Assembly (NCBI GenBank): GCA_937877385.1
Contig: CALGBJ010000041.1
Span: forward strand, 1 to 24,156
Reading direction: 5' to 3'
Source of the DNA: an uncultured bacterium
Lineage (GTDB): Bacteria > Patescibacteriota > Minisyncoccia > UBA6257 > JAGGUH01
Length of the DNA: 24,156 nucleotides
The notes under the pieces were generated by a model. That model made no database searches and had not been told where the DNA came from. It saw only the letters and a program-made list of their open reading frames with translations. The translations under genes were made by a program, and so were the position numbers. Shown here piece by piece: positions 2,166 to 5,789 of the stretch; the stretch's first letter is position 1; each line of letters opens with the position of its first letter.

Positions 2166-3098
2166 ATGAGTAGATCATTAGTTTTGATTGATGCCAATGC
2201 TTTGATTCATCGTGCTTTCCATGCTTTGCCTCAATTAAAAACCAAAAACGGCCAGCCGATTCAGGCGGTTTATGGTTTTTTTAGTTTATTTTTTAAGATG
2301 TTTAAAGAGATCAAGCCAAGCTATTTGGCGGTTGCTTTTGACAGGCCAGAGGAAACTTTTAGGCATAAAGAATTTGTTGAATACAAAGCTCAAAGACCGA
2401 AGACGCCAGAAGAGTTGGTTTCCCAGATTCCTATAGTTAAGGAAATTCTTTATGCTTTTGGTGTGCCAATTTTAGAAAAAGTTGGTTATGAAGCCGATGA
2501 TATTATTGGAAGTTTAGTAGAGAAATTTAAAGACAATAAAAAAATTGAAAAAGTTATTATTGTTACTGGCGATTTGGATAGTTTGCAATTGGTTAAGAAT
2601 GAAAAGGTTTTAGTTTGGACATTAAAAACTGGGCTTAGTCAGTCGATTGTTTATGACGAAAAGAAAGTTAGAAAAAGATTTGCTTTAGGGCCAGCTAATT
2701 TAGTTGATTTTAAAGCCCTTAAGGGCGATCCTTCTGATAACATTCCCGGAGTTCCTGGTATTGGCGAGAAAACGGCTCAGAAATTGATTGCCAAATTTAA
2801 AACTTTAGAAAATCTTTATCAGAAATTAGAAAAAGAGCCAGAAGAATTCGCTGATTTTCCTAAAAAAGTTATTTCTTCTTTAAAAGAAAATAAGGAAAAG
2901 GCCTTTTTTAGCAAAAAACTCATTGCTCTTCGTTTAGATCTTGGTTTAAAAATCAGTTTTGGCGATTTAACTCTAAAAATTAATCAAAAAAAGATAAAAG
3001 AACTTTTTCAAAAATATGAATTTAATACTCTCTGGCAGAGATTTTTAGAAATTTTTTCTCCTGAAAAAGAGAAAAAACAAGAGAGTTTGATTTTTTAA
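2166..3098 (+). CDS. Stand-alone 5'-3' exonuclease/flap endonuclease (Pol I N-terminal domain, no polymerase domain)
   Basis: LIDANALIHRAFHA, AVAFD, YKAQR, GYEADDIIG, TGDLDSLQL, LKGDPSDNIPGVPGIGEKTA (H3TH). Stops at 310 aa. Confidence 0.93.
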   Translation: MSRSLVLIDANALIHRAFHALPQLKTKNGQPIQAVYGFFSLFFKMFKEIKPSYLAVAFDRPEETFRHKEFVEYKAQRPKTPEELVSQIPIVKEILYAFGVPILEKVGYEADDIIGSLVEKFKDNKKIEKVIIVTGDLDSLQLVKNEKVLVWTLKTGLSQSIVYDEKKVRKRFALGPANLVDFKALKGDPSDNIPGVPGIGEKTAQKLIAKFKTLENLYQKLEKEPEEFADFPKKVISSLKENKEKAFFSKKLIALRLDLGLKISFGDLTLKINQKKIKELFQKYEFNTLWQRFLEIFSPEKEKKQESLIF

Positions 3099-3100
3099 AA

Positions 3101-4435
3101 ATGAAAAATAATTGGAAAATTTTTAAAAAAACCTTTAGAGAGCTTTCTTTATTTTGGCCTTTTTTCTTCTTTTTGTTTTTTCTTGTCCTTTTTTTAGTTT
3201 TTTATTCTTTTAAGTTTTCTTGGTTTAGTTTCTTTTTTTTAGCAATTTTATCTATCTTTCTTTTTTTAGTTTTCAGACAGATTTTCTCTTTGATCAAAAG
3301 ATATTTTATTTTAAGCAAAGAAAGAAACTATATTCTTTCTATAGTTGAGGGCTTGCTTGATGCGGTTATTGCTTACGATGAGGATTTTGTTGTTACTGTT
3401 TTTAATTCTTCGGCTGAAAAAATGTTCTCTTTGTCAAAGAAAGAAGTTATTGGCAAGGTGATTAAACCTTCTTTGATAAGAGAGCCCTCTTGGCAACTTT
3501 TGGTTCAAGTTGTTTTTCCTTCTTTGGCACCGGCAATAAAGAACAGGGTTAAGAGCAAGTTTCGTGAGGAGTTTGATTTGGTTTTTAAAGAACCAGAAAG
3601 AGAATTTCATATTTCTTCTGGTCGCTTGTTAGATGCTAAAGGAAAAATAATTGGTTTCGTTAAAGTTATTCACGATTCTACCAGAGAGAGACAACTTCTT
3701 AAAGAAAAAACAGAATTTTTAGATATTGCTGCTCATAATTTAAATACACCGGCAACTGAAATTAGATGGGGTATAGAAACTTTGTCTCAGATTTTACAGG
3801 AAAGAAAGGACCTTCCTCAAGAGGTTTCTTCTTTGATTAGTAAGCTTAAACGAGCAATTAGTAATTTGATTGAGATAGTTGATGAAATTCTTTCGGCCGC
3901 CAAAATAGAGGAAGGAAGGTTTGGTTATAATTTCCAATTAGGTGACATAGAGGAATTGATAGAAGAGAGATTAAAAAAATGGTTGGATATTGCTCAGAAG
4001 CATTCGCTAAAAGTTTATTTTTCTAAAAGTAAAGAGAGATTGCCAAAAGTGTTTTTTGATAAGTTTAGGATCGGTTTGGTTATAGACAATCTTTTAGAAA
4101 ATGCCATTCTTTATAATGTTAAAAACGGAGAGATTGAAGTGAAAGTAGAGAAAGATCCTCAAAGACCTTATTTAATTGTTAGTGTTAGAGATACTGGTAT
4201 TGGTATCGGCGAAAAAGAGAGAGAAAAAGTTTTTGCTAAATTTTTCCGTTCAGAGAAAGCCAAAAAACATCAAGTTGAAGGTATCGGTTTGGGCCTTTAT
4301 ATTTGCCGCAATATTATTCGTCGGCACGGAGGCAAAATATGGTTTAAATCAGTAGAGAATCGTGGTTCTACTTTTTATTTTTCTCTACCAGTTAAAAAAG
4401 AATTAATCCCACCGAAAGAAGTACCTTTGGTTTGA
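3101..4435 (+). CDS. Membrane sensor histidine kinase (2 TM, PAS, HisKA, HATPase_c)
   Basis: Phe/Leu-rich N-terminal TM pair; PAS-like DAVIAYDEDFVVTVFNSSAEKMF; H-box AAHNLNTP; N-box NLLENAILY; G1 VRDTGIGI; F-box FAKFFR; G2 GIGLGLYI. Confidence 0.92.
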   Translation: MKNNWKIFKKTFRELSLFWPFFFFLFFLVLFLVFYSFKFSWFSFFFLAILSIFLFLVFRQIFSLIKRYFILSKERNYILSIVEGLLDAVIAYDEDFVVTVFNSSAEKMFSLSKKEVIGKVIKPSLIREPSWQLLVQVVFPSLAPAIKNRVKSKFREEFDLVFKEPEREFHISSGRLLDAKGKIIGFVKVIHDSTRERQLLKEKTEFLDIAAHNLNTPATEIRWGIETLSQILQERKDLPQEVSSLISKLKRAISNLIEIVDEILSAAKIEEGRFGYNFQLGDIEELIEERLKKWLDIAQKHSLKVYFSKSKERLPKVFFDKFRIGLVIDNLLENAILYNVKNGEIEVKVEKDPQRPYLIVSVRDTGIGIGEKEREKVFAKFFRSEKAKKHQVEGIGLGLYICRNIIRRHGGKIWFKSVENRGSTFYFSLPVKKELIPPKEVPLV

Positions 4436-4444
4436 GGAGGGCAA

Positions 4445-4993
4445 TTAGAATTTCACTTTGGGCACTTCTCGGGCTTCCTCTTCTGTTTCAAAAAAAGGAT
4501 ATTTTTTAAAAGAGAAAAATTTGACTATCAAGTTGTTGGGAAATTTCTCTAGAGCAATATTGTAGTCTCTAACATTGCTGTTGTAAAATCTTCTGGCTGC
4601 TTGAATTTTATCCTCGCTGTCGGTGAGGTCTTTCTGGAGCAAAAGAAAATTCTGGCTAGCTTTTAACTGGGGATAATTTTCGGCTACGGCAAAGAGACTT
4701 TTAAGAGTTTGGGTTAAAAAATTTTCGGCTTTAGCTTTTTCTTCTAAAGAGTCAGCTTTGATGGCTTTACTTCTGGCTTCAGTTACTTTGGTTAAAACCT
4801 CTTTTTCATGCCAGGCATAACCTTTAACTGTTTCTACTAAATTTGGAATTAAGTTATACCTTCTCTTTAATTGAACTTCAATATCAGCCCAGGCTTCTTT
4901 AACTTGATTTTTAAGTCGGATTAATTTGTTGTAAACAAAAACCAACCAAAGAAAAATAATAGCAATAAGGGAAAGGATTATTTTTAAAATCAT
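4445..4993 (-). CDS. lemA: LemA family protein
   Basis: N-terminal TM, YNKLIRLKNQVKEAWADIEVQLKRRYNLIPNLVETVKGY, AVAENYPQLKASQNF, AARRFYNSNVRDYN. Confidence 0.96.
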   Translation of the reverse strand: MILKIILSLIAIIFLWLVFVYNKLIRLKNQVKEAWADIEVQLKRRYNLIPNLVETVKGYAWHEKEVLTKVTEARSKAIKADSLEEKAKAENFLTQTLKSLFAVAENYPQLKASQNFLLLQKDLTDSEDKIQAARRFYNSNVRDYNIALEKFPNNLIVKFFSFKKYPFFETEEEAREVPKVKF

Positions 4994-5009
4994 ATTTTTT
5001 TCTTTAAAT

Positions 5010-5144
5010 GGCCTCGCCTGGCGAGATTTCCCGGCTTAACACCAGGTGGGTGCCCATACCATTACTCTGTTCCTCAGAACTGGAGTAGTGGATCCGGGCT
5101 CCCGAAAGATGATGTTCGACCCGAGATCTTGCCTAAGCGAGACC
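5010..5144 (-). ncRNA. ssrS: 6S RNA-like (SsrS), compact ~135 nt
   Basis: GC-rich island whose minus strand folds by hand into one long irregular rod: GGUCUCGCUUAGGC/GCCAGGCGAGGCC closing stem, AGAU/AUCU, CUCGG/CCGGG, central bubble, GGGAGCCC/GGGCACCC, CCACUACUC/GAGUAAUGG, GUUC-UGAG-GAAC apex. GAACAU...GGGAGCCC and GGGCACCCACCUG match motifs I recall from Bacillus 6S-1 RNA. A promoter lies directly upstream. Confidence 0.75.
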
Positions 5145-5150
5145 ACTTTC

Positions 5151-5179
5151 ATAATAGCAAAAAAACTTTTTTAAAGCAA
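5151..5179 (-). promoter_or_regulatory. Putative sigma70 promoter of the 6S-like RNA: TTGCTT-N17-TATTAT with extended -10 TG
   Basis: Minus-strand TTGCTT 5179-5174, TG 5159-5158, TATTAT 5156-5151; predicted start near 5144, the first base of the closing stem. Confidence 0.65.
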
Positions 5180-5256
5180 GCCAATAACTGCCAATTGCCA
5201 ATTGGCAATTGGCAGTTAGCTATTAGCTATTAGCTATTGGCTGTTGGCTATTGGCA
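5180..5256. repeat. Heptamer array (RTTRGCW x8) with inverted units forming a perfect 34-bp palindrome at 5185-5218
   Basis: attggca attggca gttagct attagct attagct attggct gttggct attggca (5201-5256); TAACTGCCAATTGCCAA|TTGGCAATTGGCAGTTA is its own reverse complement. Confidence 0.92.
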
Positions 5257-5267
5257 AATAGATATTC

Positions 5268-5329
5268 ATAGAAACTTATAGAAATTTATTGAAATTTATT
5301 GTTTTATTGTCTATTAACGAGTTAACGAG
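5268..5329. repeat. Short tandem repeats: 10-mer ATWGAAAYTT x3 and 8-mer TTAACGAG x2
   Basis: atagaaactt atagaaattt attgaaattt (5268-5297); ttaacgag ttaacgag (5314-5329). Confidence 0.75.
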
Positions 5330-5340
5330 TTTAATATTAA

Positions 5341-5386
5341 AAATTCGAATTTGGGATTTAGAATTTAGAATTTAGAATTTCAAATT
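5341..5386. repeat. Heptamer array GRATTTN x5 (reverse complement of the AAATTCY family)
   Basis: gaatttg ggattta gaattta gaattta gaatttc at 5347-5381. Confidence 0.85.
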
Positions 5387-5423
5387 AAGATATAATCGTG
5401 TCTTAATTAAAAGAAAAAGGAAA

Positions 5424-5789
5424 TTATTTTTTAATGATGAGTTTCCAATCTTGGTAGCAGTTAATTCCCTGATAAATTACTCCTAATAAAAAGCCAAGAA
5501 ATAATTCATTGTTGATAATTGGCAATTTCAAAATAACTCCTAAGATAAGAAGAAGAGTAGAGTAAAGCCAATGGTGAAGATGAATTTGCCAATTTTTTAT
5601 TTTAATAATCAGAGATTTAAAAATTTTTGGCTGTTCGCCTTCTTTTTTGCCAGCAAGGAATTTGGCAGAAAAATAACCCCAAAGTCCTCCTATTAAAAAT
5701 AAAAAATATCCGCAAGAAATCACCAAAAATAAAAAAAGGAAGATGATTTTTTTCTTAAATTTATTTTTCAAAAAATTTAAAAAATTCAT
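5424..5789 (-). CDS. Hypothetical integral membrane protein with HLHHW motif (ORF track strand label is wrong)
   Basis: Plus strand has CAT at 5787-5789 and TTA at 5424-5426, so the listed protein MNFLNFLKNK... reads on the minus strand. Three hydrophobic segments; IHLHHWLY motif. Confidence 0.8.
   Translation of the reverse strand: MNFLNFLKNKFKKKIIFLFLFLVISCGYFLFLIGGLWGYFSAKFLAGKKEGEQPKIFKSLIIKIKNWQIHLHHWLYSTLLLILGVILKLPIINNELFLGFLLGVIYQGINCYQDWKLIIKK

Follow-up and report, generated by a model that had tools for sequence, protein, structure and literature searches.

The window, a 24,156-nt stretch of DNA derived from hydrothermal vent and sediment metagenomes, contains lemA on its minus strand and, directly upstream on the same strand, a segment that on the evidence of its sequence is an independently transcribed small RNA gene (Table 1). 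The segment occurs once in the 502-kb genome and is a GC island, with a GC content of 0.534 versus 0.325 for the genome. Its limits were set by two covariance models, R1 and R2, which score 158.9 and 103.7 bits at the locus. Based on the position of the promoter and the closing helix, the mature RNA is predicted to extend from about 5146 to about 5006, or ~141 nt. An earlier note on this DNA had placed the RNA at 5010-5144 (135 nt), which comes close to this extent.

Table 1. Features at and around the small RNA locus (window coordinates)
Feature	Position	Strand	Basis and remarks
lemA	4445..4993	-	PF04011, E 9.1e-61; starts 10 nt past the end of the model match
Probable miniature 6S RNA gene	5004..5149	-	Bounds set by covariance models R1 and R2
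Predicted latent hairpin CCUGGU / GCCGGG	5030..5046	-	Needs the lower helix (5121-5125 with 5030-5034) opened
GGGCACCC (upper helix 3' strand), then 13-nt bubble 3' strand ACCUGGUGUUAAG	5035..5054	-	Exact 14-nt RF00013 match GGGCACCCACCUGG
Apical hairpin GUUC-UGAG-GAAC	5069..5080	-	Alignments A1, A3, A5
GGGAGCCC, 5' helix strand just above bubble	5096..5103	-	Exact RF00013 consensus match; GGG in 93-100% of 90 homologues, pairs with CCC
5' bubble strand, 17 nt, GUCGAACAUCAUCUUUC	5104..5120	-	Consensus structure, RF00013 5' bubble strand; presumed pRNA start site
Presumed pRNA template CUCGGGUCGAAC	5114..5125	-	Aligns with GAgCCgAa block of RF00013; use as template would follow by analogy
Extended -10 element TGCTATTAT (TG 5158-5159, TATTAT 5151-5156)	5151..5159	-	Sequence reading
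-35-like hexamer TTGCTT	5174..5179	-	Sequence reading; 17 nt upstream of -10 box
121-aa membrane protein gene	5424..5789	-	62% identity, E 4e-45, to L002:1586-1939 (genome G002)

The RNA gene has its own promoter, as the earlier note had claimed. In the window this promoter reads TTGCTT-17-TGn-TATTAT, and among 90 homologues from the same order the -10 hexamer is present with no more than one mismatch in 83, 58 of which have exactly TATAAT. The hexamer ends 0 to 2 nt ahead of model position 1 in 67 of the 90, a fixed spacing that places the start of transcription at the first nucleotides of the closing helix, and the TGn extension occurs in 47. The -35 boxes are weak across the homologues, mostly with 2 to 4 mismatches to TTGACA, and the window promoter is absent from a consensus promoter scan because its -35 hexamer fits at only three of six positions. 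6S RNA genes stand alone, occur in one or two copies, and have a housekeeping-type promoter, and the gene described here has these features. Between the RNA gene and the membrane protein gene lies a 270-nt spacer rich in short tandem repeats; directly past the -35 hexamer, positions 5180-5386 hold arrays of micro-repeats, among them heptamers and a long TGCCAAT/ATTGGCA palindrome, and these arrays give spurious weak Rfam matches (e.g., Qrr and rli38).

Folding of positions 5005-5150 on the minus strand yielded an almost unbranched rod of -71.4 kcal/mol, compared to -44.4 +/- 3.7 kcal/mol for 200 dinucleotide shuffles (z = -7.3), none of which was as stable. The rod-shaped fold claimed earlier at 5010-5144 is thus borne out on the minus strand; the opposite strand folds more weakly (-64.6 kcal/mol). 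At the tip of the rod, the hairpin GUUC-UGAG-GAAC is found only in the window and in two genomes of its own family (G001 and G002), being missing from the other 27 sequences of alignment A5. Because of this extra apical hairpin, the window RNA is longer than most RNAs of its order.

At Rfam gathering thresholds, the window gave no match. The gathering cut-off for 6S RNA (RF00013) is 46.4 bits, which is an annotation threshold and not a biological property. A permissive search of 166 nt aligned RF00013 end to end (model positions 1-187) over 5004-5149 on the minus strand, with 15.9 bits and an E value of 0.18. The RF00013 search that the earlier note had proposed as a check therefore returned a full-length match, but at a score far under the cut-off. 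Searching the RNA's own genome with RF00013 at E 10 gave no match, the prefilter having passed over the locus that cmscan scored at 15.9 bits. The low score results from deletions in the closing arm and the apical arm, and the distance to the cut-off is why the gene stays unannotated. The earlier note had attributed the short length mainly to the apical arm; that arm is indeed cut, but the RF00013 alignment places deletions of similar size in the closing arm. Elsewhere in the alignment the 6S-type motifs that had been noted earlier are confirmed: GGGAGCCC and the 14-mer GGGCACCCACCUGG are identical to the consensus, and GGGUCGAA is a good match to the GAgCCgAa block of RF00013.

Relatives of the RNA were found through structure more readily than through sequence similarity. 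Within the family, DNA BLAST returned one 40-nt partial match, in G002, and the RNA at that site has the same architecture as the window RNA, with 11 compensatory pairs. R1, built from these two sequences, was too narrow, matching 4 of 151 genomes of the order and adding G001 and G026. RF00013 gave three weak partial matches in the order (28.7, 22.7, and 17.1 bits), all to the same type of RNA and each behind a TATAAT box. R2 was built from seven sequences, the window RNA and six relatives; the MAFFT alignment mis-registers the lower helix, and for this reason only five pairs of that helix were used. With R2, exactly one match per genome was obtained in 104 of the 151 genomes of this order of Parcubacteria, with match lengths of 123 to 172 nt (median, 135). 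None of these 151 genomes reaches 46.4 bits with RF00013, whose scores on order members lie at 17 to 30 bits. In permissive Rfam scans of 20 order members, RF00013 was the sole recurring family, appearing in 5 of 20 on the right strand and in the right place (20.7 to 29.7 bits).

When 90 homologues were aligned to the model, 95.7% of the cells in paired columns held standard pairs, compared to 70.2% after shuffling, and 30 of 31 pairs had changes on both sides. Covariation was 0.794, versus 0.266 after shuffling and at most 0.16 when the partners were slid; 770 cells were doubly changed, where 185 were expected. Covarying homologues, which the earlier note had looked to for support, are therefore abundant. 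The 90-sequence alignment was fitted to the model, which favors the structure, but the low covariation of slid partners and the excess of doubly changed cells leave no doubt that the structure exists. Its strand is fixed by the frequent G-U pairs, by strand-specific model scores (158.9 bits, compared to 30.9 bits on the other strand), and by the promoter.

The constraint on this structure is strongest at the bubble and in the blocks next to it. In the window, the 5' and 3' bubble strands measure 17 and 13 nt; the 90 homologues have the same medians (ranges, 13 to 19 and 12 to 16 nt), and the RF00013 consensus line has 16 and 13. Sequence conservation is highest in GGG-A on one side of the upper helix and CCCAC-U on the other (the latter at 96 to 99%), in the G-C pair closing the lower helix, and in an AA of the 5' bubble strand that lies within a CGGAUCAAA-like block. 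Arm lengths vary, from 39 to 82 nt for the upper arm and from 16 to 40 nt for the lower-arm strands. For most members of the order, the upper arm amounts to ~21 bp, so that it would just reach the expected place of a -35-like contact, and with such a short apical arm, polymerase binding may be weaker than in canonical 6S RNA, or unlike it. Truncated 6S-1 RNAs of 78 to 82 nt still complete the 6S cycle in vitro, and they do so without a -35-like arm, at ~10-fold lower affinity (PMC8876501). Beyond the closing helix, a terminator test that is itself crude found a U-run right past the helix in 26 of the 90 homologues, only a separate downstream terminator hairpin in 27, and neither in 37. In the lowest-energy fold of the window RNA, AACAUCA (5109-5115) pairs with UGGUGUU (5037-5043) on the minus strand, forming 7 bp across the bubble and shutting part of it; this pairing occurs neither in G002 nor in the consensus.

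A continuous series links these RNAs to accepted 6S RNAs in other Patescibacteria. In a sample of 151 genomes from across the phylum, R2 matched 15, while RF00013 matched 22 at E 0.01, 7 of them above its cut-off. Where both models match in other classes (G286, G261, G250, G203, G255, and G192), their coordinates coincide. For example, G286 scores 50.7 bits with R2 and 73.2 bits with RF00013, above the cut-off; G153 scores 48.3 and 42.5 bits, and G261 scores 58.0 and 38.3 bits, with RF00013 falling to 35.9 bits in G203 and 31.3 bits in G250. The RNAs matched in other classes are 142 to 197 nt long. The coinciding loci connect Rfam-positive 6S RNAs by gradual steps to the ~125- to 135-nt forms of the order, making the homology continuous. 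R2 gave no match to the E. coli ssrS locus at E 1, and the tie to classical 6S RNA is thus indirect, a chain that runs through other Patescibacteria.

A pattern scan of public genomes extended the range further, with at least 30 contigs carrying CPR titles, all confirmed by R2, and three untitled bins. Titles among the matches listed include Harrisonbacteria, Colwellbacteria, Liptonbacteria, Wolfebacteria, Portnoybacteria, Wildermuthbacteria, Paceibacteria, and Saccharibacteria; 18 scanned contigs of other, mostly GC-rich, taxa among the pattern matches listed had no RF00013 match. Two of the confirmed contigs are identical to G016 and G007, both members of the window's order, which places that order in Parcubacteria. 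One Saccharibacteria contig (L083) has two R2 matches on the same strand, at 2863-3000 and 3138-3274, ~140 nt apart (30.1 and 71.5 bits), which may be tandem 6S paralogues in the manner of 6S-1 and 6S-2.

6S RNA is a mimic of the open promoter that holds RNA polymerase. By analogy with the E. coli and B. subtilis RNAs (summarized in PMC8876501), the window RNA would damp transcription by filling the active-site cleft of RNA polymerase holoenzyme that carries the housekeeping sigma factor, its bubble and the GGGAG / CACCC helix beside it imitating an open promoter; the genome has genes for proteins with sigma-70 region 2. When nucleotides are plentiful, the 5' bubble strand together with the neighboring strand of the helix (5114-5125) would serve polymerase as the template for a pRNA. 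The putative pRNA would start within 5114-5120 on the plus strand, for example as GUUCGACCC..., and its presumed first nucleotide is the G opposite C at 5114, a choice that fits both the RF00013 alignment and the preference for starting with a purine. The complement of the presumed template, GTTCGACCCGAG, occupies 5114-5125 of the plus strand. This is the sequence put forward earlier, by analogy with Bacillus 6S-1, as the pRNA start, and it does lie on the plus strand, but it begins at 5114, one base later than the 5113 given at the time.

Synthesis of such a pRNA would unzip the lower helix, and the CCGGG thus released (5030-5034) would form a hairpin with CCUGG in the 3' bubble strand (5042-5046), which would help eject polymerase. 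Taken alone, the segment is predicted to fold at -8.9 kcal/mol in the window RNA, and a fold is likewise predicted for 72 of 90 homologues (median, -7.3 kcal/mol; mean z, -2.9), while in the two closest relatives, G001 and G002, it is weak (-0.7 and -1.0 kcal/mol). Covariation of this hairpin was not significant on 30 sequences and was marginal on 90, with 71.3% paired compared to 70.0% after shuffling. The release hairpin is accordingly a hypothesis drawn from folding energies and not from covariation.

With a probability that we place at roughly 0.8, positions 5004-5149 on the minus strand encode a miniaturized 6S RNA with its own extended -10 promoter, a 6S-sized bubble, and both arms cut, mimicking an open promoter. 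Some of the same observations would also suit a rod RNA, descended from 6S or convergent with it, that no longer sequesters RNA polymerase and instead sponges another protein or stabilizes lemA or rpmB messages as a processed 5' module: the score lies under the Rfam cut-off, the trimming of both arms extends to the part that would touch sigma region 4, and 37 of the 90 copies have no recognizable terminator, while 10 sit 6 to 43 nt upstream of a probable bL28 gene (see below). We consider this quite unlikely, because the strongest constraint falls on what a 6S RNA needs, namely, bubble size, GGGAG / CACCCACCU, and the template-like CGGAUCAAA block; because the RNA is connected, through the same single locus, to Rfam-positive 6S RNAs; and because 53 of 90 copies have either their own terminator or a closing stem with a U-run. 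Engineered 6S RNAs lacking the -35-like arm also still work (PMC8876501).

The position of the RNA 10 to 16 nt upstream of lemA, on the same strand and with neither terminator nor promoter between them, raises the question of a cis-acting 5' leader, either a riboswitch or an attenuator. This is very improbable. The adjacency is not conserved; in G002, the RNA comes after ndk and is convergent with the next gene, and across the order it is the RNA that the homologues have in common, not the downstream gene. G001, likewise of the family, carries the same U-run, followed by a similar kind of sequence. Many homologues end in an intrinsic terminator of their own; in other genomes, either such a terminator or a different neighbor is the usual situation, and Rfam scans matched no riboswitch family. 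The lemA leader, which the earlier note had named as the alternative to a 6S RNA, fails on this absence of conserved linkage in G002 and across the order. Relative to an orthologous membrane protein of 121 aa in the window and 117 aa in G002, the RNA gene is inverted (window 5004-5789 versus L002:1428-1939), and in G002 the 3' end of the RNA abuts the stop codon of the membrane protein gene, with lemA not adjacent.

A 6S RNA gene with its own promoter could nevertheless be cotranscribed with lemA. From the RNA promoter to the lemA ATG, no terminator-like site and no -10-like hexamer were found, and the terminator scan bears out the earlier statement that no terminator separates the RNA from lemA. 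Just AUUU follows the closing helix in this genome. As lemA has no visible promoter of its own, either inside the RNA gene or past it, transcripts started at the 6S promoter could reasonably be expected to run on into lemA and then be processed as in E. coli ssrS-fau; such cotranscription is plausible in this genome alone.

A different downstream gene recurs elsewhere in the order. In 10 of 90 genomes (L039:1674-1868, L038:1681-1875, L028, L031, L194, L204, L211, L223, L225, and L240), an open reading frame beginning M..C..C.K lies 6 to 43 nt downstream of the miniature RNA, on the same strand and with no terminator between them. At the two loci examined in full it encodes 64 aa. The product is probably ribosomal protein bL28, with a match to the full PF00830 profile at E 8e-4, below the cut-off. 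This arrangement suggests a recurrent 6S-rpmB transcription unit.

SRP (4.5S) RNA is a single-copy rod of ~100 to 130 nt. The size, shape, and copy number of the window RNA would fit such an RNA, and RF00169 finds no other SRP RNA when run over the whole genome (G000). The identity is hardly credible, and was rejected, because RF00169 has no match at the locus even at E 10, the window RNA has neither the GGAA tetraloop nor the domain IV motifs, and neither an Ffh M domain nor a GTPase of the SRP54 type (Ffh or FtsY) was detected in the genome, with tblastn using E. coli Ffh returning nothing at E 1e-3. Searches for SRP54-type GTPases in 101 genomes of the order gave weak partial P-loop matches only, and among 151 genomes of the phylum the GTPase domain was found at E 1e-10 in just 1. 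Absence of ffh and ffs in Parcubacteria has already been published (PMC4508563). Finally, a palindrome or miniature mobile element acting as DNA, to which the long, imperfect inverted-repeat form of the element and its setting between genes, amid other repeats, might point, is scarcely credible for an element that occurs once per genome, has a positioned promoter and strand-specific model scores, and carries compensatory changes including many G-U pairs, which are mismatches on the other strand.

6S RNA itself is already known, and a minority of Patescibacteria pass the Rfam cut-off for it. What is new, at the level of sequence, is a coherent miniature 6S subfamily that standard annotation misses across an order of Parcubacteria and that is also present in Saccharibacteria. 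A literature search of incomplete coverage returned nothing relevant linking 6S RNA with CPR, Patescibacteria, Parcubacteria, or Saccharibacteria. According to one published account, loss of 6S RNA, or failure to detect it, is often reported for very small genomes (PMC4779614). The present case points to a 0.5-Mb genome, from a group without SRP, that keeps its 6S RNA in a form missed by standard annotation, and the annotation gap is wide, with none of 151 order genomes reaching the Rfam cut-off while 104 carry the RNA. In these natural RNAs, bubble size, GGGAG / CACCCACCU, and the template block are held fixed, while both arms can be cut down, a division that agrees with in vitro work on truncated 6S-1 RNA (PMC8876501). 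The family alignment can be used to extend RF00013 or to found a subfamily. By analogy with model 6S RNAs, the distribution indicates that global control of RNA polymerase by 6S RNA would operate in Parcubacteria and in Saccharibacteria, the latter including cultivable strains.

A bolder version, which we regard as rather unlikely, is that the miniature 6S RNA of Parcubacteria is a natural minimal 6S RNA that dispenses with the sigma region 4 (-35-like) contact and is often transcriptionally fused to a downstream gene. If this version were true, one promoter would yield a polymerase brake and a message together (lemA here, and the probable bL28 gene in 10 of 90 genomes), and both polymerase recognition and coupling would be unlike those of model 6S RNAs, in cells with ~0.5-Mb genomes that lack even SRP.

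Compared to known systems, the miniaturized 6S RNA has most in common with 6S RNA/SsrS (RF00013; ssrS of E. coli, 6S-1 and 6S-2 of B. subtilis). Each is a rod built around a large central bubble (17/13 nt in the window RNA, 16/13 in the Rfam consensus), with GGGAG...CACCCACCUGG blocks by the bubble, a GAgCCgAa-like template block, a single-copy gene, and a housekeeping-type promoter. The predicted latent hairpin, in which the 3' bubble strand would pair with the 3' side of the lower helix, would resemble that of E. coli-type 6S RNAs, and the window RNA may be cotranscribed with the downstream gene, as in ssrS-fau (ygfA). Typical 6S RNAs measure ~180 to 200 nt, whereas the window RNA measures ~141 nt and model matches across the order have a median length of 135 nt, with both arms trimmed, and R2 does not recognize ssrS. 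Rfam-positive 6S RNAs from other classes of Patescibacteria (such as that of G286, 158 nt) have the same core motifs and architecture and are found at the same single locus by R2; at 142 to 197 nt they have longer closing arms, and the RNAs of the window's order are ~20 to 40 nt shorter still. Ms1 RNA of Actinobacteria is a 6S-like rod of ~300 nt that binds core polymerase and not the holoenzyme; in Rfam scans, it has no sequence similarity to the miniature RNA.

Engineered derivatives of B. subtilis 6S-1 (6S78 and 6S82cp; PMC8876501) consist of a central bubble and two short arms, as does the miniature 6S RNA. These constructs pass through the cycle of binding, pRNA synthesis, and release in vitro (PMC8876501). 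They are artificial, lack the -35-like arm entirely, and bind ~10-fold more weakly (PMC8876501), whereas the miniature 6S RNA is a natural form that keeps an upper arm equivalent to ~21 bp.
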